From the NCBI GenBank assembly GCA_017408525.1, contig JAFQUN010000108.1, positions 2,739 through 66,738 of the forward strand: a stretch of 64,000 nucleotides of DNA. Direction: 5' to 3'. The DNA comes from Oscillospiraceae bacterium. Its GTDB lineage: Bacteria; Bacillota; Clostridia; Oscillospirales; Oscillospiraceae. Below, in pieces: positions 10,938-27,973 of this stretch. The position numbers and the translations under genes are program-made. The stretch's first letter is position 1, and the number at the start of each line of letters is the position of its first letter. The notes beneath the pieces were generated by a model. It was not told where the DNA came from and did no database searches. It was given only the letters and a program-made list of their open reading frames with translations.

Positions 10938-11393
10938 GCGTAGATGGACAGTGCAGACTTTGCTGCGCCCGAGGGGCAGCGGAGTGGAGGGAAAAAGCTT
11001 ATATTTGGAGGATATTCTCGTGGATAAAGAGGTGTCGAGGCATCTGCGGCGAGTGGCTGAGCGATATCTGTGTTAGGATGTGTGAAATTCAATTTCTGTA
11101 TTTGAGTCGCAAATGGATAAACATGGGGGATCGCTATACCAAATGAGAGTGGTCTTCCCGTTTGTTGACGAGGTGTTGTATGGAGCGATTTTCGCACTGC
11201 AACATATGTGACATGGAGAGAGCGAGAACTAAAACCCCTTCCGTTCTGCTGCGTGGTGGAGGGAGTTGAAGCGTGCAGGCATTTTGCAAATTATTATTTC
11301 AAAATGATTTTTATACAACAGCGTATCCCTCTGAGACATGAGGGAACAGCCGCTAACGAGGAATAACAACATCAAAGTTTTTGAAAGGATATC

Positions 11394-12137
11394 GTGATTA
11401 TGAAAGTTGTGGGGATTATTCCGGCTCGTTATAAATCCAGTCGTTTTCCTGGAAAACCTCTTGCTGAGATCTGTGGAAAGCCCATGATTTGGTGGGTGTA
11501 TCAGCAATGCATGAAGGTGCCGGAACTTGACTATGTGGTAGTAGCTACGGAAGATGAAAGAATCGAAACGGAATGCAAAAAGTTGGGTGTCAATGTGATT
11601 ATGACATCGGATGAGCATCCTACAGGGACTGATCGCATTGGAGAAGTTGCCAGAAAGATCCCAGCGGATTTATATGTGAACATTCAAGGTGATGAACCTA
11701 TGATCGAACCTGAAACGATCTCAAAAGCAATTCAACCGTTCTTTTCCAATCCTGACCTTCAAGTATCTAATCTTATGACGGCCATCCAAAATCCTGTTGA
11801 TGTGGTAAACTTTACCGTCCCTAAAGTTATAACCAACCAAGAAGGAATCGGAGTTTATCTGACTCGTAGTACTGCGCCATATCCCAAGGGCAGTATTCAG
11901 TATCAGTACTACAAGCAGGTTTGCGTCTATGGCTTCAAACCTGAGGCGTTACAATTCTATTGTACAACCCCGCGCGGTAAGATCGAAAAGATTGAAGATA
12001 TCGAAATTCTGCGTTTTATTGAAAATGGATATAGGGTTCAATTTGTGGAAGTGGATTCAGAGACGACTGCGGTGGATACGCAAAATGATCTAGAGAAAGT
12101 CCGGTGTCTCATGGCAGAGAAGATCGACAGGGAGTAA
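11394..12137 (+). CDS. kdsB: KdsB-like 3-deoxy-manno-octulosonate (CMP-ulosonate) cytidylyltransferase
   Basis: MKVVGIIPARYKSSRFPGKPL...GKPMIWWV...TGTDRIGEVA...VNIQGDEPMIEP...AVDTQNDLEKV is colinear with the E. coli KdsB motifs (IIPARYASTRLPGKPL, SGTERLAEV, VNVQGDEP, GVDTPEDL). The start is GTG 11394 or ATG 11400. Confidence 0.85.
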   Translation: MIMKVVGIIPARYKSSRFPGKPLAEICGKPMIWWVYQQCMKVPELDYVVVATEDERIETECKKLGVNVIMTSDEHPTGTDRIGEVARKIPADLYVNIQGDEPMIEPETISKAIQPFFSNPDLQVSNLMTAIQNPVDVVNFTVPKVITNQEGIGVYLTRSTAPYPKGSIQYQYYKQVCVYGFKPEALQFYCTTPRGKIEKIEDIEILRFIENGYRVQFVEVDSETTAVDTQNDLEKVRCLMAEKIDRE

Positions 12138-12140
12138 CAG

Positions 12141-13730
12141 ATGAGCAAGATAAGACTATTGGACTGTACTTTGCGTGATGGAGGATATATCAACAACTGG
12201 CTTTTTGGAAGCAATAACATTAAAGAAATCTTATCAAGACTTGTTGATGCCAATATTGATGTTATTGAATGTGGATATCTATCGCAAGCGTGGAAAGAAG
12301 ACAAAAACTCAAGCCGCATGGCGAGCATCGAAATAGCTAACGAGGTAATTCCAAAATATGGAAGTTCCGATTTTGTTGCGATGATAAATTTCGGCGATTA
12401 TGCCATGGAAGATATTCCTGCCTGCACAGGCGTCGGACTAACCGGCTTACGAATTGCGTTTCACAAAAAAGACATGGAAAAGGCACTTGTCTACTGTGCA
12501 GCCATAAAAGAAAAGGGATATAAGCTCTATATACAGCCTATGGTTTCCCTAAATTATAGTGACGAAGAATTTCTGAACTTGATAGGGAAAGCGAATGAAA
12601 TTGATCCTTACGCATTTTATATGGTTGACTCTTTCGGTGCAATGAGAAAGGAAGACCTGTATCGTTTGATGTATCTGCTTGACAATAATTTGTCCGAGAA
12701 CATCAGAATAGGGTTTCATTCTCACAACAATCTCCAATTGTCTTATTCTCATGCACAGACAGTGTGCCAACATGGTCTCAGCAGGGAGGTTATTATTGAT
12801 GCATCCGTGCTCGGAATGGGGCGCGGCGCGGGGAACCTGAACACGGAATTGTTTGCGGAGTATTTGAATCGAGACCATGATGCAAATTATAACATTGTTC
12901 CGCTTCTTAAGATCGTTGACCGTGTAATCGCACCGATTTATCAAACGAAATATTGGGGCTACTCGCTCCCTTATTATCTGTCTGCATCCTATAACTGTCA
13001 CCCAAGCTATGCAGGATATCTGGATGAAAAAAAGACGCTTGCCGTTGAAAACATGGATGAAATATTTTCCATGATCGATGGAGAGCAGCGAAGCGTTTTC
13101 AACAAGGCGTATATTCGGGATCTATATGAAACCTATCAAGGAAAGAAGAGAATATTCAAAGGCAGTGATTGCCTGAGAAAGGCTTTTAGCGGGAAAGAAA
13201 TCCTGATTTTGGCACCAGGGAAGAGCGTGTTTTTAGAGCAGGAAAAGGTGTCCGCTGCGATTGCCAAAGGGATGCCTGTCGTTTCGGTCAATTTTAAGCC
13301 AAAGAATGTCAAAACAGACTATATTTTTGTCAGCAATCTTAGGCGATGGGAAACCCTTCCAAAAGAAGACGATGCGAAGATCATTGTTACATCCAATATT
13401 CAGAAGAACACGGACGGCGTGTTGGTTGTAGATTATATAGAGCTGTTGAATACAGAGGAGTATGTTAACGACAATGCGGGGCTCATGTTAATCGCTTTTT
13501 TGATAAAGCAGGGTGCTCGAAAAATACACATAGCAGGAATGGACGGATACTCTCCTCTTGCGGAGGATAACTATTTAGATGAGGGGCTGGTCATTCCGAA
13601 GCGAAGAGATGTTATTCTGAGGCAGAATGCAGGAATGGAAAGCGTGCTGGAACGGTATTCCAAGCAAATTCCTATAGAGTTTGTCACAACTCCGAGATTT
13701 GTGAGACCGGTTTTGCGTGAAAAAATCTGA
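12141..13730 (+). CDS. Fusion protein: N-terminal HMGL-like/DRE-TIM aldolase domain plus C-terminal DUF115/Maf- or sialyltransferase-like domain
   Basis: 529 aa. The N-terminus carries LLDCTLRDGGY and GFHSHNNLQL (DRE-TIM metallolyase Asp and His-x-His signatures). The C-terminal ~190 aa carry ILILAPGKSV, DYIFVSN and ARKIHIAGMDGY. These resemble the GxGPS, D..F..N and G.D motifs of CstII/Maf(DUF115)-type enzymes. That resemblance is from memory and is not verified. Confidence 0.65.
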   Translation: MSKIRLLDCTLRDGGYINNWLFGSNNIKEILSRLVDANIDVIECGYLSQAWKEDKNSSRMASIEIANEVIPKYGSSDFVAMINFGDYAMEDIPACTGVGLTGLRIAFHKKDMEKALVYCAAIKEKGYKLYIQPMVSLNYSDEEFLNLIGKANEIDPYAFYMVDSFGAMRKEDLYRLMYLLDNNLSENIRIGFHSHNNLQLSYSHAQTVCQHGLSREVIIDASVLGMGRGAGNLNTELFAEYLNRDHDANYNIVPLLKIVDRVIAPIYQTKYWGYSLPYYLSASYNCHPSYAGYLDEKKTLAVENMDEIFSMIDGEQRSVFNKAYIRDLYETYQGKKRIFKGSDCLRKAFSGKEILILAPGKSVFLEQEKVSAAIAKGMPVVSVNFKPKNVKTDYIFVSNLRRWETLPKEDDAKIIVTSNIQKNTDGVLVVDYIELLNTEEYVNDNAGLMLIAFLIKQGARKIHIAGMDGYSPLAEDNYLDEGLVIPKRRDVILRQNAGMESVLERYSKQIPIEFVTTPRFVRPVLREKI

Positions 13731-13745
13731 ACCAAGGGGGAAATC

Positions 13746-14768
13746 ATGAAAACTGTTTCGTTTGGAGAAATCATGCTCAGACTAAAGGCTCCTGGACATG
13801 AGCGATTATTTCAGGGAAACCGTTTGGAAACCTCGTTTTGTGGCGCAGAGGCGAATGTAGCGGTGAGTTTAGCCAACTATGGAGCAGACTCCCACTATGT
13901 AAGTATTCTACCCGACAATGCAATCGGAGATGCATGTATCAGAGAACTTCGCAGTTGGAATGTAAAGACGGAAGCGATTGCTAAGGTGCCGGGGCGGATG
14001 GGCATTCTCTTTCTGGAGGCGGGAGCAAACCAGCGTCCAAGTCAAGTTATGTATGATCGCTGTTTTTCTGCACTTGCCCAAGCAGCGAGTGACAGTATTG
14101 ACTGGGAGGAAGTGCTGATCAATGCAGATTGGTTTCACATATCCGGGATTACACCGGCACTTTCACCGCAGGCGGCAGAGATAGCGTTTTCTGCTGTGAA
14201 AACAGCAAAAAGGAACGGTGTGACCGTATCTTGTGACTTGAATTACCGAAAGAATCTGTGGAATTACGGGAAAACGGCTACGGAAGTCATGCCTTCATTT
14301 GTGGAACTGACAGATGTACTGATCGCCAATGAAGAAGACATTCAAAATGCATTGGGAATTACAACCGGATTTGAGGTTGACAGCGTTTTAGATAGCGAAA
14401 AGTACGAAGAATTAGCTCAAAAAGTTTTTGCGGTCTACGGGAACCTCCAAAAAATTGCGATTACGCTGCGAGAAAGCCACAGCGCCGACTGGAACGACTG
14501 GTCTGCGTGTCTATTTGAGAAAAACGCCTGCTTTATCAGCAAAAAATATAGCATTCGAAATATTGTGGATCGGGTTGGCGGCGGAGATTCCTTTGCAGCC
14601 GGATTGATCTATGGTCTGAATCACTATGCGGAAAAACAGTCTGCAATTGAATTTGCAGTAGCGGCAAGTTGTCTGAAACACAGCATTTTGGGCGATTTTG
14701 CTAGAATCAGCGCGAAAGAGGTTGAAACACTCATGAACTCTGAGGGAACGGGTCGAATCGTTCGCTGA
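13746..14768 (+). CDS. PfkB-family sugar kinase, 2-dehydro-3-deoxygluconokinase (KdgK)-like
   Basis: 340 aa. FGEIMLRL...GAEANVAVSLANYG and a C-terminal DRVGGGDSFAAGLIYG ATP-binding motif. The overall pattern is typical of KdgK. Confidence 0.75.
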   Translation: MKTVSFGEIMLRLKAPGHERLFQGNRLETSFCGAEANVAVSLANYGADSHYVSILPDNAIGDACIRELRSWNVKTEAIAKVPGRMGILFLEAGANQRPSQVMYDRCFSALAQAASDSIDWEEVLINADWFHISGITPALSPQAAEIAFSAVKTAKRNGVTVSCDLNYRKNLWNYGKTATEVMPSFVELTDVLIANEEDIQNALGITTGFEVDSVLDSEKYEELAQKVFAVYGNLQKIAITLRESHSADWNDWSACLFEKNACFISKKYSIRNIVDRVGGGDSFAAGLIYGLNHYAEKQSAIEFAVAASCLKHSILGDFARISAKEVETLMNSEGTGRIVR

Positions 14769-14802
14769 TTGACGATTGCAAGAGGAGGAGTCGGGAGCCT
14801 AT

Positions 14803-16218
14803 ATGTTAAGTCGATTTAAAAATTGGTTGAAACGGTGGCTGCCGCCAACGTCTAAGTCGTTTTATCAGGCAATGAACCGTTTGCAAAGAGAATATGAGCG
14901 GCATTTAAGCCATATTGACCATCAGTTGAATGCTCTGACAAGCCATATTGATCATCAGTTGAATACTCTGAATCAGCAACTTGCCAGTGTTCAGAAATGC
15001 GAAGAGATGCTTATTGAGGTTAATCGGGAAATAACAACACAACTGGAAACGCTGAGCGAACAGCTTATGAAGATGTGTGAGCAGGAGACGGCTGTTGCGC
15101 AGGAGCAGAACGCTCTCTTTGGCGATCTGCGGCTACAGAGCGATTTGGGAATGAAAGTGTCTGAAGATATCAAGGAGCGTTTGGAGGAAATTGTGCAGAC
15201 CCAGGCACAGAATGAGGCTGCTATACAAAAACAACAGGCAAGCCTTCTTTCTGAAGTGCGCGTTTGCCGGCGTAACTCCACTGCTCGGTATATCTACACC
15301 AACCTAACAGAAAGAGAAGCATTGGCAGAATCTTTCGCTGAAATCATGCAGGACAGCCCTGCCTTTGAAAGAAAATTCCAAAAGCTGATACGAGGATTGG
15401 ATACACAGAGTAGGCAAAATGTCATTCGCATTCTTAGCAGGATGCATAAGATTCTTGACCGAAACACCAAAGGCATTGATTTGTTCACCGAGCAAGAGCA
15501 AGAAGAATTGCGCAAAATGAAGGATGACTTTTCTGCGCAAATTCTGCAGGTGTCAGATCAAATGTACTGTTACAACGGATACTTATTACCGGTTAATCAG
15601 TTTGATGCCAGCGTATTTTACAGTCGGTACGGGTTGGAATTGGTTGAAGGTCTCGAGAGAATTAGGCAGGGAGACATTATCGATGCTGGAGGATACGTGG
15701 GAGATACCGCGTTGCTTTTCTCGTCTTTGACATCAAAAAATGTTTATGTGTTTGAGGCAGCGCCTGACAACTACGATCTGGTGCAAAAGACGGTTGCCTT
15801 AAACGGTCTAACCAATGTAGTTGCTGAAAATTTGGCGTTGGGCGCGGAGCGCTGCACCATGACTTTCAGTCTCGGAGAGAGAAATTCCTGCAATACCTTG
15901 ATAGAGCGACCGGGGTATGTTTATCCTGAACACATTGATGTTCAAGTTGTTTCTCTGGACGAATATGTCCGCGAACACAATCTGAAGGTGGGTTTGATTA
16001 AGGTGGATGTCGAAGGCGGCGAGCAGTTGGTCCTAAAAGGTGCTTTGGAAACAATTCGCCGCTTCAAACCGGTACTTTTATTCAGCATTTACCACAGTGC
16101 CAGCGATTTTTTTGACATTAAGCCGATGATTGAAGAGCTGGGCTTGGGGTATAAGTTCAAAGTGTTTAAGCCTATCAATAATGCTATTGCAATAGAAACT
16201 GTATTGATTGCAGAATAA
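14803..16218 (+). CDS. Coiled-coil protein with a C-terminal FkbM-family methyltransferase domain
   Basis: The ATG at 14803 lies behind a GAGGAGGAG RBS. The N-terminal ~230 aa are Q/E/L-rich and heptad-like, including a tandem 11-aa repeat SHIDHQLNALT/SHIDHQLNTLN. The C-terminus has DAGGYVGDTAL...VSLDEYV...IKVDVEGGEQLVLKGA, which is FkbM-like. Confidence 0.75.
   Translation: MLSRFKNWLKRWLPPTSKSFYQAMNRLQREYERHLSHIDHQLNALTSHIDHQLNTLNQQLASVQKCEEMLIEVNREITTQLETLSEQLMKMCEQETAVAQEQNALFGDLRLQSDLGMKVSEDIKERLEEIVQTQAQNEAAIQKQQASLLSEVRVCRRNSTARYIYTNLTEREALAESFAEIMQDSPAFERKFQKLIRGLDTQSRQNVIRILSRMHKILDRNTKGIDLFTEQEQEELRKMKDDFSAQILQVSDQMYCYNGYLLPVNQFDASVFYSRYGLELVEGLERIRQGDIIDAGGYVGDTALLFSSLTSKNVYVFEAAPDNYDLVQKTVALNGLTNVVAENLALGAERCTMTFSLGERNSCNTLIERPGYVYPEHIDVQVVSLDEYVREHNLKVGLIKVDVEGGEQLVLKGALETIRRFKPVLLFSIYHSASDFFDIKPMIEELGLGYKFKVFKPINNAIAIETVLIAE
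14908..14973 (+). repeat. Tandem 33-nt (11-codon) repeat within the coiled-coil region
   Basis: AGCCATATTGACCATCAGTTGAATGCTCTGACA followed by AGCCATATTGATCATCAGTTGAATACTCTGAAT. Confidence 0.9.
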
Positions 16219-16239
16219 ATGAAAAGTTGGTGAAGGTAA

Positions 16240-18096
16240 ATGGGTGAGAGAATAGCTGTTTTTGTATCACACAGAATTGATTTGCCTTGCGAAACGCCGC
16301 AAAGCTCACTATATCATCCGATGCGTTGCGGCGCCGTTTACGACACCGGAAACGCAACAATTCCGGGAGACCATACAGGAGAGCACATATCCGAACGGCG
16401 TAACTCGATGTGCGAACTTACAGTTCAGTATTGGGCATGGAAAAATTATGATGCTGATTATTATGGTCTGTGCCATTATCGAAGATACTTTTCTTTTTCG
16501 GATCAGCTGTATGGGATGCAGCGTTTTAACGTTGTGGATTCTGATACAATTTCTGCTGCCGCAAAAAAGTATTGTTTAACAGACGAGCAAAAAATGTCCA
16601 GAATAATTACATCACACGATGCAATTATCCCTACTGCCATCGATATTCGTACTGTTCTAACAGGTGTTCCTGGAGGAGAGCGCTTTTATCCCCATAGCAT
16701 TCTTGAGTTTTGGAACGCCAAAGTTGACCAAGTTGATCCCAGGTGTGTTGACGCGTTAATAAGAGTTGTCCAAGAACATCAGCCTGAATATTATCCTGCA
16801 TTAATGGAGTATTTGCACGGCACCACATTTTATGGTGGCTGTTGCTATATCATGCGCAAGGAGTTGTTCAATCAGCTTTGCGAATTCCAGTTTTCGGTCC
16901 TTGCAGAACTTGAAAAGCAATTTGATATGTCTTCCTATACGGGGGAGCATACGCGTCAACCTGCGTTTATGGGTGAAATTCTCTATGCTACGTTTTTGAT
17001 CTATCTAAGGAAGAAGGAATATAAAGTCAGAGAACATCAAGTTGTGCTGTTCAAGAGGTATCAAGTTGCGGCGGTGCCTACAAAAGCGCCGGCGGCGCCT
17101 ACAAAAGCACCGCAGGTAAATATGTCGAAAAAACCAAGCATTAGGGAAATGATTAGAAAAATGCTGCGTCGAATTTTTCCGGCGTATCGTGTAGCTTTGC
17201 GTATCGAGGAGTTTTTGCATGAGAATGCCTATGGCATGCTGCCAGGCACTGTGTCACCAAAAGATGCAGGGAAATCCGGAAAGTCCGGAAAACCGATCGC
17301 AGGTGTTTTAGCAAAGACACCGTGGCAAAAGCAGACCCTTACCTCAGATGTTGGGCTGGATGTTGCCTGCTTAGCGCTTGAAATTCGTGATACGCACAAG
17401 GCGAGCTTCTCCGAATTTAGGAATTGCCACACCGGAAAGAATGTGGTTATTGTTGCAACAGGACCTTCTATGCGGCACTATACGCAGATGGATGGAATGG
17501 CACATATTGGCATGAACTCTGCGTATAAGAATGACAAGATCAAGCTGGATTACTATTTTATCACGGATTTTGAAAACCGCGTGGAGATGTTTCAGGATCT
17601 GAAGGAATATGATTTTGTTAAGTTCTTTGGGCAATATTCGGCAGGCATCTACCGCGACCGCTTCCAGGCATCTGAGCAGATGATCTTTGAAAACAAGGGG
17701 CGCCGCTTCTTCCAAGGTGCACCGAGCATGGATATCCATGTGAACATTGAATATTACCCATTGATGGCGTTCTATTCCGTTGCATTCCAAGCAATTCATT
17801 TTGCGCTATATACAAATGCAAAGCGAATATTCCTTGTGGGCTGCGATTGCTCTTCCGATGGTTATTTTGACGGCTCCCAACAGATAGGAAGCAACCCACC
17901 GAAGTGGGTTCTCGGCTATCAAAAATTAAAGACCTTTGTTGAACACTTCTATCCCGAGACAGAAATCATCTCTGTGAATCCTGTTGGTCTGAAAGGATTG
18001 TTCCACGATGTCTATACAGAGAGCTACCTAGATCAGCATCCTGAAATCGACCGTACGCAGTGTGAGATTCTCAAGCCTGAACTTTATGAGGAATAA
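16240..18096 (+). CDS. Bifunctional putative glycosyltransferase: N-terminal DUF4422 domain, low-complexity linker, C-terminal DUF115/sialyltransferase-like domain
   Basis: 618 aa. The N-terminus is a paralog of the 22235 gene (ISERRNSMCELTVQYWAWKNYDADYYGLCHYRRYFSF). The linker has AAVPTKAPAAPTKAP and GKSGKSGKP repeats. The C-terminus has NVVIVATGPSM, DYYFITDF and AKRIFLVGCDCS motifs. Confidence 0.65.
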   Translation: MGERIAVFVSHRIDLPCETPQSSLYHPMRCGAVYDTGNATIPGDHTGEHISERRNSMCELTVQYWAWKNYDADYYGLCHYRRYFSFSDQLYGMQRFNVVDSDTISAAAKKYCLTDEQKMSRIITSHDAIIPTAIDIRTVLTGVPGGERFYPHSILEFWNAKVDQVDPRCVDALIRVVQEHQPEYYPALMEYLHGTTFYGGCCYIMRKELFNQLCEFQFSVLAELEKQFDMSSYTGEHTRQPAFMGEILYATFLIYLRKKEYKVREHQVVLFKRYQVAAVPTKAPAAPTKAPQVNMSKKPSIREMIRKMLRRIFPAYRVALRIEEFLHENAYGMLPGTVSPKDAGKSGKSGKPIAGVLAKTPWQKQTLTSDVGLDVACLALEIRDTHKASFSEFRNCHTGKNVVIVATGPSMRHYTQMDGMAHIGMNSAYKNDKIKLDYYFITDFENRVEMFQDLKEYDFVKFFGQYSAGIYRDRFQASEQMIFENKGRRFFQGAPSMDIHVNIEYYPLMAFYSVAFQAIHFALYTNAKRIFLVGCDCSSDGYFDGSQQIGSNPPKWVLGYQKLKTFVEHFYPETEIISVNPVGLKGLFHDVYTESYLDQHPEIDRTQCEILKPELYEE

Positions 18097-18101
18097 AAGT
18101 C

Positions 18102-18884
18102 ATGAAAGTTGTACTTTTAGCTGGTGGCTTCGGCACCCGAATTTCCGAAGAAAGTCAATTCAAGCCCAAGCCCATGGTGGATCTGGGCGGAATGCCTATT
18201 TTGCTGCATATTATGAAGCTGTACTCTGCGCATGGGTTCAATGAATTCATTATCTGCGCGGGGTATAAGCAGCATGTCATCAAGGAGTATTTTGCAGATT
18301 ATTTTCTGCATACTTCCGACATTACCTATGACTTTACCAGCGGCAAGAACGAAATGACTGTGCATCGCAATCATTCCGAGCCGTGGAAGGTCACTGTGGT
18401 CGACACCGGTCTGAATACGATGACCGGTGGGCGCGTCAAGCGAGTAAAGGACTACATTGGGGACGAGCCGTTCATGCTGACGTATGGTGACGGTGTGTCT
18501 GATATCAACATTACGGAGCTTGTGAAATTCCATCAGTCTCATGGAAAGCTGGTGACCATGTCAGCGTACAACGCGGGACAGCGCTTTGGCGTGCTGGATA
18601 TTGACGAGAATGGCTGCATCAATGAATTCCGCGAAAAGACGCAGGGCGACGGGAACATGATCAACATCGGCTTCATGGTTTGCCAGCCGGAGTTTGTCAA
18701 TTACATCGATGGCGATAGCACGGTTCTGGAGAAGAAGCCGATGGAGACGGTCGCAAAGATCGGTCAGCTGATGGCGTACAAGCACGAAGGCTTCTGGCAG
18801 TGCATGGATACTGTGCGCGAAAAAGAGACACTGGAAAAGATGTGGGTCAAGGGCGAGGCTCCTTGGAAAGTGTGGGCTGATTGA
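18102..18884 (+). CDS. rfbF: Glucose-1-phosphate cytidylyltransferase
   Basis: MKVVLLAGGFGTRISEESQFKPKPMVDLGGMPILLHIMKLYSAHGFNEFIICAGYKQHVIKEYF is the canonical RfbF N-terminus. 260 aa. Confidence 0.9.
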   Translation: MKVVLLAGGFGTRISEESQFKPKPMVDLGGMPILLHIMKLYSAHGFNEFIICAGYKQHVIKEYFADYFLHTSDITYDFTSGKNEMTVHRNHSEPWKVTVVDTGLNTMTGGRVKRVKDYIGDEPFMLTYGDGVSDINITELVKFHQSHGKLVTMSAYNAGQRFGVLDIDENGCINEFREKTQGDGNMINIGFMVCQPEFVNYIDGDSTVLEKKPMETVAKIGQLMAYKHEGFWQCMDTVREKETLEKMWVKGEAPWKVWAD

Positions 18885-19948
18885 TGCGGTATATTGATTT
18901 TGGGTTCTATAAAGGAAAGCGAGTCTTTGTAACAGGTCATACAGGGTTTAAGGGCAGCTGGCTCTGCCGAATTTTGGTTAATGCCGGCGCGGAGGTAACG
19001 GGTTACTCTTTGCCCGCGCCCACCGACCCCAATTTGTTCGAGCTGGCGGGGCTGGAAGGCAAGATGAAGAGCGTCATAGGTGATGTCCGCGATTTGGCTG
19101 CAATGAAGCGTGCATTTGACGAAGCACAGCCGGAGATCGTGCTGCACCTTGCCGCGCAGCCCATCGTTCGCGACAGCTATAAAGATCCCGCCTATACTTA
19201 CGAAACCAATGTTATGGGGACAGTCAACATTCTCGAATGTGTGCGGCAGTCGAGTTGTGTCCGCAGCTTCTTGAATGTGACTACAGATAAGGTGTATCAG
19301 AACAACGAGTGGGCGTGGGGCTATCGTGAAAATGAGCCGTTGGACGGATTTGATCCCTATTCAAATTCGAAGTCCTGCTCTGAATTGGTCACACATAGTT
19401 ATCTCAACAGCTTTTTCGCGGATGGAGCGCTTGCTGTTTCCACCGCTCGCGCAGGAAATGTGATCGGTGGCGGTGATTTTGCAAACGATCGTATCGTTCC
19501 GGACTGTATTCGTGCTATGCAAGCGGGGAAAGATATCATTGTTCGCAATCCGCACTCCACTCGTCCGTATCAGCACGTTTTGGAGCCGTTGTTTGCCTAC
19601 CTGATGATTGCGCAGAGACAGTATGAGGACAGAAAATTTGCCGGTTGGTATAATGTTGGCCCTGATGAGTGCGACTGTGTGACAACGGGCGATTTGGTGG
19701 ATTTGTTTTGCAAGACGTGGGGTGATGGCGCCAAGTGGATCAATCAGGCGGAAGCCAACGCGCCCCATGAGGCAAACTTCCTTAAGCTGGACTGCTCCAA
19801 ATTGAAATCCGTCTTTGATTGGCAGCCTCGTTGGCACATTGATGAGGCAATCGGAAAAACCGTCGAGTGGACCAAGATTTGGTTGGAAGAAGGAGATGTG
19901 CCTGCCGAGATGGATCGGCAGATTGCAGATTACATGGGAGATATATGA
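18881..19948 (+). CDS. rfbG: CDP-glucose 4,6-dehydratase
   Basis: 355 aa. VFVTGHTGFKGSWL, DPYSNSKSCSELV (YxxxK) and the length are typical of RfbG/DdhB. The start overlaps the rfbF stop. Confidence 0.88.
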   Translation: MMRYIDFGFYKGKRVFVTGHTGFKGSWLCRILVNAGAEVTGYSLPAPTDPNLFELAGLEGKMKSVIGDVRDLAAMKRAFDEAQPEIVLHLAAQPIVRDSYKDPAYTYETNVMGTVNILECVRQSSCVRSFLNVTTDKVYQNNEWAWGYRENEPLDGFDPYSNSKSCSELVTHSYLNSFFADGALAVSTARAGNVIGGGDFANDRIVPDCIRAMQAGKDIIVRNPHSTRPYQHVLEPLFAYLMIAQRQYEDRKFAGWYNVGPDECDCVTTGDLVDLFCKTWGDGAKWINQAEANAPHEANFLKLDCSKLKSVFDWQPRWHIDEAIGKTVEWTKIWLEEGDVPAEMDRQIADYMGDI

Positions 19949-20880
19949 GAGCGGTTGTGATTACAGGAGCAGATGGTTTCATAGGAAGCCACCTTGTCCA
20001 ACATCTTGCAAAGCAAGGGATTCTGGTGTATGCCATCGTTTTAAATGAAAGTAAGACACGTTTCCGAGTGGAAGGGTTGCAGAATGTGAATGTGGTTGCA
20101 GCTGCGCCAGAAGATTATATGAGTCTGTGTTCTATACTGCCCATGGAACCGGATGCCTTTATTCACTTGGCATGGGACGGAGTTGCTCCAGAAAAGCGCA
20201 ATTCTACAGAAAAACAGTCGAAGAATATTTCCTGTGCTTTCAGTGCTGTTAGATTGGCAGCTACGATTCGTGCTGGACGTTTTATCCTTCCGGGCTCCAC
20301 CGCGGAGTATATGAACAGCGGAACCGTCATTAACGAAAAGACGCTGCCATCACCCCAGAACGCCTACGGTTCAGCAAAAATAGCCGTGCGTTACCTTTGC
20401 CGAAGCTTGTGTGATGAACTGGGGATTCCGTTTGTTTATGCTGTTATAACAGGTATTTATGCGTCAGACAGAACCGACAACAATGTTATATATTACGCTA
20501 TTTCAAACCTTTTGGCAGGGAAAAAACCTTCATTCACAAAACTGGAACAACTGTGGGACTATGTACACATTGACGATGTCGTACGTGCATTTGCTTGTAT
20601 TGCGGAAAAAGGGAAAGATGGAGCGTTTTATGCAATTGGACATGGCGATAACTGGCCCTTACGCAATTATATCTACCAGATCAGAGATATCATCAATCCC
20701 TCGCTTCCTCTTGGAATTGGGGAGATCCCGTACACGGGGGGAAGCCTCCCCATTTCGTGCGTTGACTTAACCGCGTTGCGTAGAGATACCGGATTTGAAC
20801 CGGTGGTCTCATTCGAAGCTGGAATTCGGGATGTGATTGCAAAGGTTGCAGAGCAGATGAACAACAAAGAGAATCTCTAG
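19945..20880 (+). CDS. NAD(P)-dependent extended-SDR epimerase/reductase (probable CDP-4-keto-6-deoxyhexose reductase/epimerase)
   Basis: The ATG at 19945 overlaps the rfbG stop (ATGA). VVITGADGFIGSHL Rossmann motif and a YGSAKIA catalytic YxxxK. Substrate specificity cannot be read from the sequence. Confidence 0.7.
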   Translation: MRAVVITGADGFIGSHLVQHLAKQGILVYAIVLNESKTRFRVEGLQNVNVVAAAPEDYMSLCSILPMEPDAFIHLAWDGVAPEKRNSTEKQSKNISCAFSAVRLAATIRAGRFILPGSTAEYMNSGTVINEKTLPSPQNAYGSAKIAVRYLCRSLCDELGIPFVYAVITGIYASDRTDNNVIYYAISNLLAGKKPSFTKLEQLWDYVHIDDVVRAFACIAEKGKDGAFYAIGHGDNWPLRNYIYQIRDIINPSLPLGIGEIPYTGGSLPISCVDLTALRRDTGFEPVVSFEAGIRDVIAKVAEQMNNKENL

Positions 20881-20891
20881 GAGGGGCAATT

Positions 20892-22031
20892 ATGGATTGT
20901 CTGGTTATAGGTTGCGGTCTATCGGGCGCAGTAATCGCTCGCCACCTGGCGGAACAGGGAAAGCTTGTGACGATTTGGGAACGGCGTGACCACATAGGCG
21001 GAAATATGTACGACTATGTGGATGAGCACGGGTTTTTGGTGCAAAAGTATGGACCGCATACGTTTCATACAAAAAACGAAGCGCTATATAACTACATGTG
21101 CCGGTTTGAACAGTGGAACGAATATAAGCTGACTTGTGGTGCTGTATGGAGTGGAAAATACACGCCAACGCCCTTTAACTTTACGACGATCGACACCTTT
21201 TATCCGCCGGAAAAAGCGATACAGCTAAAAGAAAAATTGACTCGTGCATTTGAAGGCAGACAGACAGCCACGGTTGTGGAAGTTTTGGAGCATCCTGATC
21301 CTGACATTCGGGGGTATGCCGAATTTTTGTTTAAAAATGATTATGCGCCGTATACCGCAAAACAGTGGGGGGTCTCCCCAGAAGAAATCGATCCGAGTGT
21401 ACTAAAGCGTGTGCCGCTTCGGTTTTCTTATCAGGAAGGGTATTTTGACGATCCCTATCAGGTCATGCCTGCCCATTCGTTTACCGCTTTCTTTGAAAAG
21501 CTGCTTGATCATCCCAACATTCATGTCAAACTTGGGATGGAAGCGCTCGACCATCTTTGCGCAAAAGATGGTGCGCTGTATTTGGATGGTGGGAAACTGG
21601 ATATTCCTGTCATCTATACAGGAGCATTGGATGAACTGTTTGGATGTGTCTACGGAAGACTGCCCTACCGCTCTTTGCGCTTTGAGTGGAAGTATTCTGA
21701 GGATGACAGTATTCAGGAAGCTCCTGTTGTGGCGTATCCGCAGGAGAATGGCTATACCCGTATTACGGAGTATAAAAAATTGCCAATACAAGATGGGCTG
21801 GGAACCAGCTATGCGGTGGAGTATCCCCTGCCCTATAAGGGGGATGAGAAGACGGAGCCCTATTACCCTGTACTGACGGAGAAAAGCCAGGAGCAGTATC
21901 GGCGGTATAAAGAACTTGCGGACAGAATTCCCAATCTAATTTGCTGCGGGCGTTTGGCAGATTTCAAGTATTATAACATGGATCAGGCGTTGGCACGAGT
22001 CTTAGATGTTTGTGCAGAATGTTTTGGATGA
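20892..22031 (+). CDS. glf: UDP-galactopyranose mutase
   Basis: 379 aa. DCLVIGCGLSGAVIARHLAEQGKLVTIWERRDHIGGNMYD, GPHTFHT and the ADFKYYNMDQA C-terminus are typical of Glf. Confidence 0.9.
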   Translation: MDCLVIGCGLSGAVIARHLAEQGKLVTIWERRDHIGGNMYDYVDEHGFLVQKYGPHTFHTKNEALYNYMCRFEQWNEYKLTCGAVWSGKYTPTPFNFTTIDTFYPPEKAIQLKEKLTRAFEGRQTATVVEVLEHPDPDIRGYAEFLFKNDYAPYTAKQWGVSPEEIDPSVLKRVPLRFSYQEGYFDDPYQVMPAHSFTAFFEKLLDHPNIHVKLGMEALDHLCAKDGALYLDGGKLDIPVIYTGALDELFGCVYGRLPYRSLRFEWKYSEDDSIQEAPVVAYPQENGYTRITEYKKLPIQDGLGTSYAVEYPLPYKGDEKTEPYYPVLTEKSQEQYRRYKELADRIPNLICCGRLADFKYYNMDQALARVLDVCAECFG

Positions 22032-22234
22032 GTGCAGGTAAGAGATATCAATTCTGCCGGCATTCATGTTCTGTTGCCAAATAAACCTTGTAGCGCCACT
22101 GTATACAAGACCGCTCCGGGTGCCGGAATTGCTTGCGCAGCTGGAGGGCGGTAGTCCTGCGCTGAGGGGTTGCGATTGAAGTGTAAATCTACGGACAATA
22201 AAGCCGTGGCAATAAAGAGGTAGGAGGGGCAACG

Positions 22235-23236
22235 GTGCCAGACATAAAGATATTTGTTTCTCGCCGCATTGATATCGATAGTGAAATGGTTGACAATCCG
22301 CTATATGTGCCGGTGCGCTGCGGCGCGGTGTTTGACGAGGAAAACCTGACGAATATCGCAGGGGATGACACAGGAGATAACATCTCAGAGCGCCGTATGA
22401 ACTTTTGTGAGTTTACTGTGCAGTATTGGGCGTGGAAAAACGAGTCAGCAGACTATTACGGGTTGTGCCATTATCGACGGTATCTCTCCTTCGACGAAAA
22501 GCACCACCGAACAAATGGGCATGGTCTTGTCATGGCAGCAAGTCTATCCCGCTTTGCAATGAAGCGGTACGGGCTGTTGGATAAAGCTGCAATGGTCGAG
22601 AAAATTGTACAGTACGATTTAGTGATGCCTGAGCCGGCGCCGGTTGCGCGGATGCCTCTGCCGCAAGGAAAAGTAAAAACAGTCCGACAACTGTGGGAAT
22701 CCCATGACGGTATTTTCTTTGAGAAAAAGGTTATTGATCGAATGTTTGAGTTGATCGATGATCTGTCTCCGGAATATAGTGCCTCAGCGAGGGAGTATTT
22801 TGCTGGTGATCACCATATGGGTTATAACTGCTATATTATGTGTAAACCGCTATTTGAGCGGTTGTGCTGTTTTCAGTTTCCCATTATGGAGGCGATCGAA
22901 GAGGAGTTAGATACTACCGGCTATACCGCTGAAATGCTTCGAACACCGGGTTATGTGGGAGAAATGCTGTTTGGCATATTCTTGTATCATGTGACACGTC
23001 ACGAGAAGTGGAGGGTAAGCCAACGACAGCTCGTTCTGTTTGTTGAAACGCGTGCATTGAGTTGGGCGGAGCATGCCCGAAGACGTTTTGCGTTTTGGAT
23101 GGGGCAAGTGCTTCGGATCATTATTGCCCCATTTTTTCCGTTGGGCACAAAACGGCGGAAGGTTCTCAGAGATATTTTTTATGCGGTCGTTTCCGCAAAA
23201 GAGAGAAGTGCTGCAGCGTCGTCTCAAACGAAATAA
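22235..23236 (+). CDS. DUF4422-domain protein (putative glycosyltransferase, possibly Galf-related)
   Basis: 333 aa. GTG start behind a GGTAGGAGGGG RBS. Paralogous to the N-terminal domain of the 16240 gene (ISERRMNFCEFTVQYWAWKNESADYYGLCHYRRYLSF). Confidence 0.7.
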   Translation: MPDIKIFVSRRIDIDSEMVDNPLYVPVRCGAVFDEENLTNIAGDDTGDNISERRMNFCEFTVQYWAWKNESADYYGLCHYRRYLSFDEKHHRTNGHGLVMAASLSRFAMKRYGLLDKAAMVEKIVQYDLVMPEPAPVARMPLPQGKVKTVRQLWESHDGIFFEKKVIDRMFELIDDLSPEYSASAREYFAGDHHMGYNCYIMCKPLFERLCCFQFPIMEAIEEELDTTGYTAEMLRTPGYVGEMLFGIFLYHVTRHEKWRVSQRQLVLFVETRALSWAEHARRRFAFWMGQVLRIIIAPFFPLGTKRRKVLRDIFYAVVSAKERSAAASSQTK

Positions 23237-23814
23237 GTGGCGTGCAGAAACTTTTTGGAAACAGGGGTAAGAGCAACGCGATGTTTCTTGTCTTCGGTGT
23301 GCTTTCTGACGAAGTAGGCTGCAGAGGACATCCCGATTCTTGAAATGGCCAGTATAGGCGGATCGAGCGCAAGGAAACGGTCGTTGATTTGCTGCGCAGC
23401 GCCCTCCACACTTTGCAGCTGGCTGTAGATGCCGATGATGATTTCCGTTTCCTGAAGCAGATGGTCGCTGGTTGAACCGACCGTGTTTCTGGTCAGAGTC
23501 TTGAATTCTACGAAATCCACAATAGAGAATCTCTCCCCCGAGATAGACGTTGCAATGGTTCGCGGGACATGGAATTCATGTTGGAGATTTTCTTTGGAGA
23601 AGTATAATGGGAAAGGATATACAGCGCTGTTGCCGAGAATCTTCCATTGAAAATCCCTCGCAGTCATTCTAGAATGACCACGAAGGTGGATAGCGTCAAG
23701 AGTTGTGCGTAAATTAGTTCGCAGCTTCTGGTCAAATGGAGTCAGTCGACAATAGAGGTATCCTCGAAAGCTGCCTCTAAATGCTTCATGTTCATGAGCT
23801 TCTTGCTGCCCCAC
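23224..23814 (-). pseudogene. Unassigned ORF or gene remnant adjacent to the transposase relic
   Basis: 196-aa ORF with no family I recognise. It overlaps the 3' end of the DUF4422 gene and the C-terminus of the IS relic, and has no clear RBS. It may be a fragment of cargo or of a disrupted gene. Confidence 0.2.
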
Positions 23815-24422
23815 TGTGTGCCGGAAATATGCGTAGCTGTGCGCAGACCAACATCAGCGCAGAGGTGCCGCAGGGAAAAGTCTCCACTATCCTCGTTAAG
23901 TGGCGGAGCTCGCGGTTTTGAACTATTCAATGGCATTGTTGGTCTGGATCCGAGTCCAGTGTTCGAACAGAAAACCGTAGTAGGTCCAATGCTGTTCGGA
24001 CAAAAGCGCAAACTGTTCGGTTTGCGAAAATTGAGAAATCCCTGCCCGTTTTTGAGATGGGCGGGGATTTCTTCGCCGTTACATTTTTGATCAGCGCTCG
24101 CACAGTTCTGCAAAAAATCCACCACATAAAAAGCCAGCGTATTCTTGATACGCCTAATTGTCTCTGCTGGAAAAAAGCTGCCTCCATTGAGATGCGGCAT
24201 GTGGATCGTGATACCTTCGGAAGTGGTGGTAAGATTTCGATAATAGTGGTCGCTGCGGCAGCCCTGGCGAGCCTCGCTGCGCTCGTAGCGTACCGCCTGA
24301 GTCAGCTTTTCTGCCTCGGCTTCCAGCAGTTTGTTGAGCGTTTCCTCCACGCTGCCGCGCACCAATTCCTTGATCTGACCCTTGATAATTTCTTCGTTCA
24401 GCTGTACAATCTTCTCGGACAT
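23742..24422 (-). mobile_element. Degenerate IS256-family (mutator-type) transposase gene: frameshifted and internally deleted
   Basis: The N-terminus LNKLLEAEAEKLTQAVRYERSEARQGCRSDHYYRNLTTTSEGITIHMPHL matches the IS256 transposase N-terminal pattern. EHWTRIQTNNAIE, ALMLVCA and HISGTQWGSKKLMNMKHLE blocks appear in three different frames. The total span of about 0.7 kb compares with about 1.2 kb for an intact gene. Confidence 0.75.
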
Positions 24423-24561
24423 GGCTTGTTGTCTCCTTTCGAATGTTTGCGTCGTGGCTTCATTCTACCAGAGATCTGCAAACCATGTCTCCCTTTTTAC
24501 CCTTTTTTCAATTTGCGCAATTTATTGTACATTATCTCGAGCATTTATGCATTATTACAGC

Positions 24562-24601
24562 AAGAGACCGCTGATTCATTTCATTGAATCAGCGGTCTCT
24601 T
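24562..24601. terminator. Bidirectional hairpin terminator between the IS relic and tagH
   Basis: AAGAGACCGCTGATTCA-TTTCA-TTGAATCAGCGGTCTCTT. Confidence 0.7.
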
Positions 24602-24606
24602 CTATA

Positions 24607-25371
24607 TCACAGTTTCAGCTTTCCGTCCAAAAAGTCCTGATAGCGGTCACAGATCGCCTGCACATCGTCGCCAAATTCGATTTGGCGACCTTTGTGCAGC
24701 CACAATATTTTATTGCACATTTCGCGCACTTGTGCGATCGAGTGTGAGACCAGGATCGTTGTTGCACCGCTGCCGATGATCTCGCGCATTTTCTGTTCGC
24801 TCTTTTTTCTGAACGCACCATCGCCGACGGAAAGGACCTCGTCCAAAATCAAGATATCGGGATGCACCAGCGACGCGATCGAAAAAGCCAGACGCGACTT
24901 CATGCCGGAGGAGAGCTGCTTAAACGGTCTATCCTCAAATTCGCGCAGTTCGGCAAAGTCGATGATCCGGTCGTACGTTTCATCCATAAATTTGCGCGTA
25001 TAACCCAGCATGGCGCCGCGCAGATATGTGTTCTCCCGCACGGTGAGCTCGCCGTCAAAGCCGCTTCCAAGCTCCAAAAGCGCCGCAATGCTACCCTCTC
25101 TTCGTACATAACCGCAGGTTGGTCGCATGATCCCGGAGACGACCTTGAGCAGTGTGGACTTGCCGGCACCGTTAGTGCCGATAATACCAAGCATATCCCC
25201 CTTTTCAATAGAGAATGTGATGTCCTTATCTGCCCAAAACTCCACGACATTATAATTCTTCTTGATTTTGCGAAGAACGTATTCTTTCAAACCGATGTCC
25301 TTAAAGTCGCCCGTCATGTAGCGAATGGACACGTTGTTTACTTCCAAAATGCTCATGGCATCCTCCGTCAA
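24607..25371 (-). CDS. tagH: Polysaccharide/teichoic-acid export ABC transporter ATP-binding protein (TagH/Wzt-like, short form without a C-terminal extension)
   Basis: 254 aa. Walker A GTNGAGKST, signature LSSGMKSRLAF, Walker B ILILDEVLSVGD. Confidence 0.85.
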   Translation of the reverse strand: MTEDAMSILEVNNVSIRYMTGDFKDIGLKEYVLRKIKKNYNVVEFWADKDITFSIEKGDMLGIIGTNGAGKSTLLKVVSGIMRPTCGYVRREGSIAALLELGSGFDGELTVRENTYLRGAMLGYTRKFMDETYDRIIDFAELREFEDRPFKQLSSGMKSRLAFSIASLVHPDILILDEVLSVGDGAFRKKSEQKMREIIGSGATTILVSHSIAQVREMCNKILWLHKGRQIEFGDDVQAICDRYQDFLDGKLKL

Positions 25372-26135
25372 ACGTAGTACAGGAACCGGGTATTATACTT
25401 CTTGTACATCCAACAGCCGACACCCAGCGCAATGAGCACATCTGCCATCATCAGGAGATGGAACCAGACGCTGGGTATGGTGGCTTCGATGACGATCTTG
25501 CGGAAGTAGCGGATAAAAAGATATACGGGGTTGAGGAAAAACGCGTATTGCACGGGGACGCTGTAGCGGTCGATCGTGTAAAAAATGGCGGACACATACA
25601 TGAGAAGCTGCGTGAAAACACCCCATAGGTATTGAATGTCACGAAAAAAGACAAAGAGGGCGGACAGGATCAACCCTAAGCCAATGTTGAAGAGGACCAG
25701 GCAGCCTATGGGGTAGAGAAGGAGGATAAATTTCCAGGTGAACGTGATATTGTCAAAAAGACAGAAAATGAAAAAGATAACGAGCGTGAGGGCGAAGTTG
25801 ATGAGCGTCTGCACGTTTTTGGAGAACAGAAACAGATACTTCGGGACATTGACCTTGGAGAAGATCGCCGAATTTCCAATTAGGGAGTGCATCCCCTGCG
25901 AGGTGGATTCATTGAAATAGGCGAAGATCAGGTTGCCGCAGAAAAGGTAGGTGGTATAATGTTCCATGTTGCGCCCGAAAAACTGCGTAAAGACGAGCTT
26001 CATGATAAACAGCGTCAAAAGCGGAGAGAGAAGGCTCCACGCCATGCCGAGCACTGTGCGTTTGTATTTTGTTTTGAAGTCTCGCTTGACCAGCTCTTCA
26101 AAGAGGAAGCGATGCTGTTTTAGCTTTTGAAACAT
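25368..26135 (-). CDS. tagG: ABC-2 type polysaccharide/teichoic-acid export permease (TagG/Wzm-like)
   Basis: 255 aa. The N-terminus LVKRDFKTKYKRTVLGMAWSLLSPLL is typical of ABC-2 exporters. Six TM segments. Overlaps the tagH start. Confidence 0.85.
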   Translation of the reverse strand: MFQKLKQHRFLFEELVKRDFKTKYKRTVLGMAWSLLSPLLTLFIMKLVFTQFFGRNMEHYTTYLFCGNLIFAYFNESTSQGMHSLIGNSAIFSKVNVPKYLFLFSKNVQTLINFALTLVIFFIFCLFDNITFTWKFILLLYPIGCLVLFNIGLGLILSALFVFFRDIQYLWGVFTQLLMYVSAIFYTIDRYSVPVQYAFFLNPVYLFIRYFRKIVIEATIPSVWFHLLMMADVLIALGVGCWMYKKYNTRFLYYV

Positions 26136-27136: not shown

Positions 27137-27973
27137 TCAGGCTTGGACGATCTGGATAGCAACGCACTCGGGTCCGCCCTGCGTGATGAAGGCGGGACTG
27201 AGCGGAAGAAGCTCAAAATGCGCGGCAGGGAAAGCGGCGCAAAGCAGCTCGTGCGCCTCGCCTGCAAGATGCGGCGCGGAACCGTGCGTGACATAGATCC
27301 GCCAGCCTTCGCCCGTGCCGATCGGTTCAAGCTGCTTTGCGACAAATCGCACCGCGTGGCGGAAGCTGCGGCGGACACCGGCGATGGTCAAGTGCTCACC
27401 GTTTTCCGTCTGCGTCAGGATAGGCGCCATTTTTGTGAGCTGCCCGACATAGGAAACGAGCGGCGAGAGCCGTCCGCCGCGGCGAAGATACGCAAAATCC
27501 GCAGGGATGAGATAGCTTTTCGCGCTGTCCATCAGCTCATGCACGCGGCGGACGATCGCATCTTTTTCTGTGCCGCCGTTTGCAAGGTGCAGCGCCGTTT
27601 CCACAATATAACGGTGCGGACCGCAGAGTGTGCGGCTGTTGATGACGGTGATGCGACCGCTGTTTTCACAAAGGTCCGCGGCAGCGGCGGCGCTTGCATA
27701 GGTGCCGGAAAGACCGGCTGCCATCGAGATATTCAAAATGTCGTCGCACGGAAACTTCTCATAAAGCGAAAGGACCTCACCGATCGCAGGCTGGCTGCTC
27801 GTTGGCATATTACCCTCACGGATGATGGAGACGAACTGTTCGGCGCCGATCTCGTCAAATTCGCGGTACGATCTACCGGCGATGGTGACGGAAAGCGGTG
27901 CGACGGAAAAGCCCGCTTCATGCGCCTGCCGCGAAGAATATAGCGTGGATGTGTCGGAAATGATGCGAACCAT
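27137..27973 (-). CDS. DegV-family fatty-acid-binding protein
   Basis: 278 aa from MVRIISDTSTLYS. The family pattern SQPAIGE...GLSGTY...ADFAYLRRGGR is present. The longer ORF in the track, extending to 28606, is an upstream read-through artefact. Confidence 0.85.
   Translation of the reverse strand: MVRIISDTSTLYSSRQAHEAGFSVAPLSVTIAGRSYREFDEIGAEQFVSIIREGNMPTSSQPAIGEVLSLYEKFPCDDILNISMAAGLSGTYASAAAAADLCENSGRITVINSRTLCGPHRYIVETALHLANGGTEKDAIVRRVHELMDSAKSYLIPADFAYLRRGGRLSPLVSYVGQLTKMAPILTQTENGEHLTIAGVRRSFRHAVRFVAKQLEPIGTGEGWRIYVTHGSAPHLAGEAHELLCAAFPAAHFELLPLSPAFITQGGPECVAIQIVQA

Follow-up and report, generated by a model that had tools for sequence, protein, structure and literature searches.

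Why should an aldolase be built into one polypeptide with a domain that resembles sialyltransferases? The question is posed by a gene at 12141..13730 (+) in a 64,000-nucleotide (nt) stretch of an Oscillospiraceae bacterium genome (assembly GCA_017408525.1, contig JAFQUN010000108.1, forward-strand positions 2,739 to 66,738), hereafter the window. The original prediction, made from the sequence of the window alone, took the product to be an unusual fusion of a sugar-forming aldolase to the enzyme that probably transfers the ulosonic acid so formed. Our analysis leads to another answer: the fusion is the standard architecture of a very large protein family, and this family, together with a neighboring cytidylyltransferase, is likely to be a conserved module making a cytidine monophosphate (CMP)-activated 3-deoxy-2-ulosonic acid, similar to Kdo (3-deoxy-D-manno-octulosonate), for a surface polysaccharide. 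We assign this function because the cytidylyltransferase gene is linked or even fused to the family, its product passes the thresholds for KdsB, and genes for glycan assembly lie around it. The parts of the protein to which the text refers are as follows.

12141..13730 (+): two-domain open reading frame (ORF) of 529 amino acids (aa), aldolase domain plus C-terminal nucleotide-binding domain (C-domain); architecture found in at least 595 species genomes
12141..13160 (+): DRE-TIM (HMGL-like) N-terminal domain (N-domain) of the metal-dependent pyruvate-aldolase type, aa 1 to ~340, from PF00682, PDB 3dxi and comparison with DmpG
13173..13700 (+): C-domain, aa ~345-520, a probable divergent minimal member of the MptE/DUF115/GT42 superfamily, from AlphaFold2, Foldseek and HHalign
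13200..13229 (+): motif ILILAPGKSV, aa 354-363, strand beta1 and glycine-rich loop, equivalent to GxGPS of DUF115 and Cst-II; G360 invariant
13317..13337 (+): motif DYIFVSN, aa 393-399; N399 aligned with the Asp of canonical DUF115
13521..13550 (+): motif KIHIAGMDGY, aa 461-470; G466-x-D468-G469 invariant, equivalent to Cst-II G152-I-D154

The fusion is the norm of a large family

The gene is an uninterrupted frame of 529 codons with an ATG start and no internal stops, and it encodes a protein with the same sequence as NCBI MBQ2830437.1, listed as "aldolase catalytic domain-containing protein" and originating in an Oscillospiraceae metagenome-assembled genome (MAG). The single polypeptide and the three motifs quoted for it earlier were thus found as described, at aa 354-363, 393-399 and 461-470, and the motifs occupy the most conserved columns of the C-domain in an alignment of 117 homologs.

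The notion that such a fusion is unusual did not survive comparison with other genomes. A search of 5.8 billion proteins returned 7918 matches, the best 120 of which were all 520-561 aa long with 98-100% query coverage each, and at least 595 matching stretches were confirmed by tblastn in a scan in which a single genome represented each GTDB species. Of the 80 loci retained from these confirmed stretches for locus comparison, nearly all align over aa 1 to ~520 of the window protein; they span Clostridia, Bacilli, Bacteroidota, Campylobacterota, Spirochaetes, Synergistetes, Melainabacteria, Verrucomicrobia, Alphaproteobacteria and Acholeplasmataceae. A profile search of 1.84 billion proteins gave the same picture, the best 150 of 1361 matches all belonging to this aldolase~C-domain family. 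Members are named in databases "aldolase catalytic domain-containing protein" or "4-hydroxy 2-oxovalerate aldolase". No natural aldolase-only member was found, the sole candidate (PDB 3dxi) being a truncated construct.

A frameshift or missed stop codon that had joined two separate genes, the artefact against which the original prediction warned, would explain the few database entries that look split (P0024 and P0002). These apparently stand-alone C-domains were rejected as assembly frameshifts, because they overlap the upstream aldolase ORF by 43-61 nt. Given the continuous frame in the window and thousands of full-length homologs in many phyla, the two-gene reading is refuted for practical purposes, its remaining probability being negligible.

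A few rare architectures were also seen: a 772-aa protein (P0217) combining an HpcH_HpaI aldolase with the HMGL domain and the C-domain, a 672-aa protein (P0277) with an additional ~140-aa tail after HMGL and the C-domain, and a 394-aa protein (P0299) joining an Aminotran_5 fragment to a C-domain, which is possibly an assembly chimera.

The N-terminal domain is a DRE-TIM metallolyase of the LRDGGY branch

The reading of residues 1 to ~340 as a complete DRE-TIM aldolase domain was borne out. The HMGL-like family PF00682 matches aa 3-245 with 75 bits against a cut-off of 29, the sole Pfam match in the protein, the metal ligands are intact, and comparison with 3dxi and DmpG extends the aldolase-like region to aa ~286-340. 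Motifs LRDGGY (aa 11-16) and GMGRGAGNL (aa 225-233) are its signatures. The nearest relatives in sequence and fold, including the Foldseek results, are 3dxi (sequence match E 2e-37), then aldolases of the DmpG/BphI/HsaF type, then homocitrate and isopropylmalate synthases. By sequence, the N-domain forms a "LRDGGY" branch of its own within the DRE-TIM metallolyases, and its superfamily suggests that it would condense pyruvate with an aldehyde.

The 3dxi structure, entitled "N-terminal domain of a putative aldolase (BVU_2661)", is of the same family. Its source protein, from Bacteroides (Phocaeicola) vulgatus, shares the motifs LDCTLRDGGY, GMGRGAGNL and WG.LPY.LS with the window protein and is ~27% identical to it in structural alignment; its function was never assigned and only its N-terminal half was crystallized. 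The native gene (L083:7001-8533, 100% identity) encodes 510 aa and adjoins a cytidylyltransferase and a PfkB kinase. Its C-terminal part matches the hidden Markov model (HMM) of the C-domain with E ~1e-9, although it is more divergent and without several of the Asn and Tyr motif residues that occur in the window protein. No structure of the family's C-domain has ever been solved, the domain having been cut away in the only crystal structure.

The DmpG-type aldolases (PDB 1nvm, 4lrs, 4jn6) have the same DRE-TIM barrel and helical C-terminal subdomain, metal ligands and Arg. In an alignment with DmpG, R12/D13 correspond to R17/D18 and H193/H195 to H200/H202, the metal site and Arg, and R12, D13, E43, H193 and H195 are invariant in 41 homologs; in contrast, the catalytic His21 of DmpG is replaced by an invariant Tyr16 in the same set. 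Both types have a Rossmann-type partner, which for DmpG is the separate acylating dehydrogenase DmpF and for the window protein the fused GT42/MptE-like domain; the context is aromatic catabolism for the former and glycan synthesis for the latter. Membership of the DmpG equivalogs was rejected (TIGR03217, 88.9 bits against a cut-off of 286; NF006049, 100 against 229), and no acylating aldehyde dehydrogenase of the DmpF type is adjacent to the gene, whose neighbors are the cytidylyltransferase and a PfkB kinase. A role in phosphonate synthesis, as for RhiG/FrbC, was likewise rejected, the annotated genes of the window including neither a phosphoenolpyruvate (PEP) mutase nor a phosphonopyruvate decarboxylase.

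A conserved module with probable CMP-ulosonate synthetases

An indication of function is the company that the gene keeps. A cytidylyltransferase of the CTP_transf_3 family is adjacent or fused to it in 69 of 81 loci, 6 of which have it fused and 63 as the immediate neighbor on the same strand; these enzymes are of a KdsB-like type and a divergent PseF-like type. In the window the fusion gene is closely flanked by two genes.

11394..12137 (+): KdsB-type CMP-ulosonate (CMP-Kdo) synthetase, with NF009905 at 299 bits (cut-off 255) and TIGR00466 kdsB at 159.5 (155.2); it stops 3 nt before the fusion gene
13746..14768 (+): PfkB-family kinase similar to 2-keto-3-deoxygluconate kinase (KdgK); it starts 15 nt after the fusion gene

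In five species the aldolase, the C-domain and a KdsB-like cytidylyltransferase form one ORF of 767-787 aa. These triple fusions occur in Arcobacteraceae, Campylobacterales, Campylobacteraceae, Sulfurovaceae and a Verrucomicrobia MAG, at the following positions.

L068:2947-5253
L076:2352-4658
L079:7983-10346
L081:1674-3977
L082:7989-10307

The genes that come next vary. A HAD phosphatase gene directly follows four of the five triple fusions, and a HAD-IA phosphatase (PGP/PpaX-like) lies directly downstream of the fusion gene in ~26 of 82 loci. A KdgK-like PfkB kinase takes this place in ~10 of the 82 genome loci and in most Bacteroidales loci, and the two were never found together downstream in the 82-locus sample. 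An enzyme dependent on thiamine diphosphate is encoded directly upstream in two loci (L063, L071) and one gene further upstream in another (L048). These upstream and downstream patterns suggest sublineages that differ in their substrates or in phosphorylation state. Bacteroidales metagenome loci show a highly conserved order of the aldolase-C-domain gene (~510 aa), the cytidylyltransferase and the PfkB kinase, usually followed by a gene for a GT42/DUF115-like or polysialyltransferase-like protein. In one Lachnospiraceae locus, a 322-aa protein with two ferredoxin-like Cys clusters is encoded directly downstream of the fusion (L006:9608-10576).

The module resembles the known CMP-ulosonate pathways (KdsD-KdsA-KdsC-KdsB, NeuC-NeuB-NeuA and PseG-PseI-PseF), which likewise end in a CTP_transf_3 enzyme, feed sialyltransferase-like enzymes and often include an accessory phosphatase or kinase step. 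Those pathways condense with the PEP-dependent KdsA or NeuB, whereas the module has a pyruvate-type DRE-TIM aldolase, and no KdsA or NeuB homolog was seen next to it. In the mechanism that we propose, the N-domain would bind pyruvate on a divalent metal and join it to a sugar aldehyde, either a free or a phosphorylated aldose, giving a 4-hydroxy-2-oxo (3-deoxy-ulosonic) acid without PEP; the fold and metal site are observed, and the chemistry is that expected of the superfamily. The KdsB-type neighbor, for which the gene linkage is observed, would then convert this presumed substrate into a CMP-sugar. Phosphorylated intermediates or decorations would be handled by lineage-specific enzymes, the KdgK-like kinase here and the HAD phosphatase elsewhere, and nearby dedicated sialyltransferase-like enzymes would finally add the sugar to the glycan.

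On this basis, many bacteria, gut Clostridia and Bacteroidales among them, may use an undescribed, PEP-independent route to a CMP-activated 3-deoxy-ulosonic acid, in which the aldolase carries a sialyltransferase/MptE-like domain repurposed for sensing or processing the CMP-sugar, a generalization that we offer with some reserve. The sugar could be Kdo-like, or a novel one that bears a phosphate in loci with the KdgK-like kinase. If this is correct, it would represent a new biosynthetic logic for sugars so far made by PEP-dependent synthases (Kdo and the sialic, pseudaminic and legionaminic acids), and the gene pair would mark an unrecognized acidic sugar in thousands of capsule loci, predicted to occur in the capsules and wall polymers of Bacteroidales and Clostridia that are abundant in the gut. 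It would also give a function to the Pfam-invisible domain that was removed from 3dxi. As a practical genomic marker, the cassette consists of the aldolase-C-domain gene and the cytidylyltransferase as its core, often with a KdgK-like kinase or HAD phosphatase and usually with a GT42-like or polysialyltransferase-like transferase nearby.

Fold and remote homology of the C-terminal domain

What the C-domain contributes to this module is a harder question. Neither Pfam, even at E<=10 and with PF01973 included, nor NCBIfam gave a match to aa 335-529. An AlphaFold2 model of the domain based on 39 sequences reached a predicted local distance difference test score of 91.4 and a predicted template-modelling (TM) score of 0.89. 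Its top Foldseek match in the PDB was Methanocaldococcus jannaschii MptE/HPPK (8sd5; E 2e-5, probability 1.0, TM ~0.5), followed by SteA (probability 0.99-1.0) and then the human sialyltransferase ST8SiaIII (0.94-0.98); the remaining matches listed were generic Rossmann folds, and Cst-II and Maf were absent among the 50 listed.

Profile comparisons placed the domain in the same fold class by another path. HHalign related it to stand-alone PF01973 proteins of related loci, whose cluster representative scores 53 bits on PF01973, at 93.8% (E 1.7e-7) and 94.8% (E 4.9e-8, 180 columns). These stand-alone proteins in turn matched Cst-II at 96.1%, and their profile retrieved Cst-II (E 5e-7), a lipooligosaccharide sialyltransferase, Maf 5mu5 (2.6e-5) and, marginally, MptE from the PDB. 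Compared directly, the C-domain and Cst-II match weakly (HHalign 14%, E 0.0019), and the link between them is transitive only, because it runs through the DUF115 proteins. A profile of 82 C-domains searched against the whole PDB had as its sole matches SteA (0.046), a GT42 enzyme (0.15) and MptE (0.65), none of them significant alone and all three of one fold class. An earlier C-domain alignment gave nothing significant against PDB sequences with phmmer and hmmsearch, and a single stand-alone neighbor protein did not match the solved DUF115 structures, whereas the profile of the same proteins did. The earlier assignment of this part to the sialyltransferase/DUF115/MptE fold class agrees with the Foldseek and HHalign results, and we regard it as highly likely that the C-domain is a divergent, minimal member of the MptE/DUF115/GT42 superfamily of phosphonucleotide-binding domains.

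The closest solved folds, MptE (8sd5) and SteA (9hmy/9hmz), matched by Foldseek with probability 0.99-1.0 and TM 0.44-0.53, have a similarly minimal domain size, but the sequence similarity to them is not significant and the window context is a polysaccharide locus, not pterin, methanopterin or folate synthesis or cell division. The resemblance to MptE, which is of similar size, nevertheless raises the possibility that the C-domain is a kinase or pyrophosphokinase that phosphorylates the aldose or ulosonate with ATP, leaving the HAD phosphatase to remove the phosphate before CMP activation, in parallel with the animal route of GNE kinase, NANS, NANP and CMAS. These steps would be consecutive, as would suit a fusion, the phosphatase is found directly downstream in about a third of loci, and the near-universal D444 and D468 could bind a Mg-nucleotide. 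Such a role is improbable: the MptE profile match (E 0.65) covers the glycine-rich loop only, and in it the VADGA of MptE corresponds to VSVNF in the C-domain, which carries an Asn there as GT42 does; many loci are without the phosphatase; the window and most Bacteroidales loci already have a PfkB kinase; and the HAD enzyme is of a generic PGP/PpaX-like type that could be a pyrophosphatase. The original prediction had set an MptE fold with intact kinase residues against its own transferase reading; the fold is indeed closest to MptE, which bears out only one half of that objection.

Conserved residues of the C-terminal domain

The conserved motifs of the C-domain are APGxS, VNF, FxSNxxR, TSN, DNaG, aGxDGY, NY, N and T. 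In the alignment of 117 members, Bacteroidales branch and triple fusions included, the invariant residues are G360, N419, G466, D468 and G469 only. D444 is kept in 114 members, the exceptions being three triple fusions with Thr or Lys, T516 in 113 and N496 in 106. At position 470, 77 members have Tyr and 40 have Phe.

Several of these positions have equivalents in Cst-II. G360 and S362 correspond to GxGPS, N384 to N31 and Y478 to Y162, and G466-x-D468-x-Y470 to G152-I-D154-F-Y156, so that Y470 of the window protein is the equivalent of Tyr156. N399 takes the place of the conserved Asp of canonical DUF115 and, in a low-confidence HHalign alignment, that of Cst-II Asn51. The equivalent of Tyr162 is present in the window protein and missing in the Bacteroidales branch. 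The catalytic His188 of Cst-II has no equivalent in the aligned region, where N496 is the only conserved residue among the 117 members. The C-domain is the faster-evolving of the two domains, its mean pairwise identity being 0.30 and that of the aldolase domain 0.41. In sequence terms, the universal core looks nucleotide-binding and does not look like a conserved Cst-II-type catalytic apparatus.

Transferase, hydrolase or sensor?

The motifs of the C-domain are those on which its assignment as the transferase was founded, and an active sialyltransferase-like glycosyltransferase, moving the CMP-ulosonate made by its neighbor to an acceptor (a conserved primer or another ulosonate), is a serious if unlikely alternative. 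This would make the protein, or the triple fusion, a "make-activate-transfer" machine in which transfer pulls the reversible aldolase reaction forward. Remote homology to GT42/DUF115 is consistent with such activity, as are the equivalents of Cst-II N31, N51, D154, Y156 and Y162 in the window protein and a C-domain variability across subfamilies that is about that of real GT42-like transferases. The glycine-rich loop, the strand-end Asn and G-x-D-x-Y are common to the C-domain, Cst-II/GT42 and Maf (PF01973), and Cst-II and Maf genes also adjoin CMP-sugar synthetase genes. Maf PF01973 domains do transfer Kdo and N-acetylneuraminic acid (Neu5Ac).

Other features separate the C-domain from these enzymes. 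It is always fused to an aldolase, has no Pfam match, no His188 and no lid or acceptor module, and its structure is nearer to MptE than to Cst-II. The Maf flagellin transferases have a central PF01973 domain with flagellin-binding flanks, whereas the window domain is ~185 aa long, C-terminal and without flanking domains, and no flagellar genes were noted among the annotated neighbors in the window. Phe replaces the Tyr156 equivalent in a third of members, and Asn stands where canonical DUF115 proteins have Asp. Although the glycan contexts are unrelated, the aldolase fusion is obligate in all of them, and the two steps would not be consecutive.

The loci themselves usually offer another transferase. 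In a census based on iterative searches for GT42/DUF115-like proteins and for GT-B proteins similar to polysialyltransferases and TagF, restricted to loci covered for 6 kb or more to either side, one or more other candidates were found no further than ~8 kb away in 43 of the 52 genome loci and in 32 of the 34 Bacteroidales-type loci (83-94%), the window included. The dedicated transferases nearby, the missing His188, the variable tyrosines, the minimal size and the onward fusion to a cytidylyltransferase are the reasons for which we place the C-domain in the synthesis unit, and on balance it is probably not the main transferase of the locus. The claim that it probably transfers the ulosonic acid made by its own aldolase is neither demonstrated nor refuted, with several results standing against it, and the motifs alone give no ground for naming the domain a sialyltransferase in annotation, just as the idea of a rare fusion is to be corrected there.

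A third role would keep the glycosyltransferase-like fold and replace the acceptor by water, as in PseG, NeuC and LegG, so that the C-domain frees an aldose from a nucleotide sugar for the fused aldolase. The two steps would be consecutive, the fold has no acceptor lid, genes forming or modifying nucleoside diphosphate (NDP) sugars are near in the window and in ~15 loci, and DmpG-type aldolases exchange aldehydes with a Rossmann-fold partner, which is in part established knowledge. We give this hydrolase only a slim chance, since known members of the superfamily bind CMP-ulosonates or ATP and not NDP-aldoses, and the NDP-sugar genes are inconsistently linked.

The role that we tentatively favor for the C-domain is that of a product sensor or regulatory domain, an assignment made by analogy and held with considerable caution. 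It would bind a cytidine nucleotide or the CMP-ulosonate end product and throttle the fused aldolase, as feedback on the first committed enzyme. DRE-TIM synthases such as LeuA and CimA have C-terminal regulatory domains, and their architecture of TIM barrel, helical subdomain and C-terminal ligand-binding domain is a model for the proposed feedback; LeuA, CimA and the homocitrate synthases belong to the catalytic superfamily of the N-domain, although the fold of their regulatory domain is unrelated to that of the C-domain. Feedback by CMP-sugars has precedents in CMP-Neu5Ac acting on GNE and CMP-pseudaminic acid acting on PseB. Within the same fold class, SteA is a probable non-catalytic phosphonucleotide binder (PMC12977500).

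Taken as a whole, the explanation in which the fusion protein and the adjacent cytidylyltransferase act as proposed for both domains has, in our estimate, somewhat less than an even chance of being right; its homology, fold, architecture and gene linkage are observed, and all of its chemistry is inferred. Several points weigh against it. The main subfamily keeps the equivalents of the Cst-II donor site (N384~N31, N399~N51, D468~D154, Y470~Y156 and Y478~Y162), which, as far as can be read from the residues, fit an active transferase as well as a sensor, and PF01973 enzymes (Maf) transfer Kdo and nonulosonic acids with acidic residues in place of His (bioRxiv 10.1101/2020.06.03.131540). In 9 of 52 well-covered genome loci there is no candidate transferase other than the C-domain, and the polysialyltransferase/TagF-like part of the census may contain users of other donors. 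The closest solved structure is a kinase (MptE), and a kinase role could be indicated by the HAD phosphatases beside the gene in ~26 loci. The aldolase chemistry is itself only inferred, because His21 of DmpG is an invariant Tyr here, and a literature search found no characterization of the family or its cassette.

The glycan locus of the window

Downstream of the cassette, the window contains further genes expected of a locus for polysaccharide synthesis and export.

14776..16218 (+): FkbM-family methyltransferase, domain at aa ~301-456, downstream of the PfkB kinase
16240..18096 (+): DUF4422 glycosyltransferase with a canonical GT42/DUF115-like domain in the same polypeptide at aa ~384-538; Pfam MptE-like, E 5e-6
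20892..22031: Glf, downstream along with NDP-sugar genes
22235..23236 (+): second DUF4422 gene, downstream
24607..26135 (-): ABC-2 exporter genes, on the opposite strand, near the end of the low-GC stretch

The protein at 16240..18096 belongs to the alignment whose profile matches Cst-II (5e-7) and Maf 5mu5 (2.6e-5), and its GT42-like C-terminus is what would carry out the transfer step here; judged by sequence, it is more likely than the C-domain to be the CMP-ulosonate transferase of this locus. Six other loci (L011, L032, L039, L045, L048 and L066) have relatives of its GT42-like domain close to the aldolase fusion.

The N-terminal ~250 aa of the 14776..16218 protein resemble a long coiled coil, with weak matches to coiled-coil families only. 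The combination of this protein with the adjacent kinase and the ABC-2 exporter recalls the coiled-coil enzymes WbdD and WbbB, which terminate chains in ABC-transporter-dependent glycan pathways. The presence of Glf suggests a polymer containing galactofuranose. Beyond the exporter, 27137..28606 (-) encodes a 489-aa protein with a DegV domain at aa 213-487 only, its N-terminal ~210 aa being without a Pfam match. The guanine-plus-cytosine (GC) content of the window at ~11000..26000 is 0.43-0.50, against 0.54-0.62 in the flanks; this low-GC stretch coincides with the glycan locus and may have been horizontally acquired.

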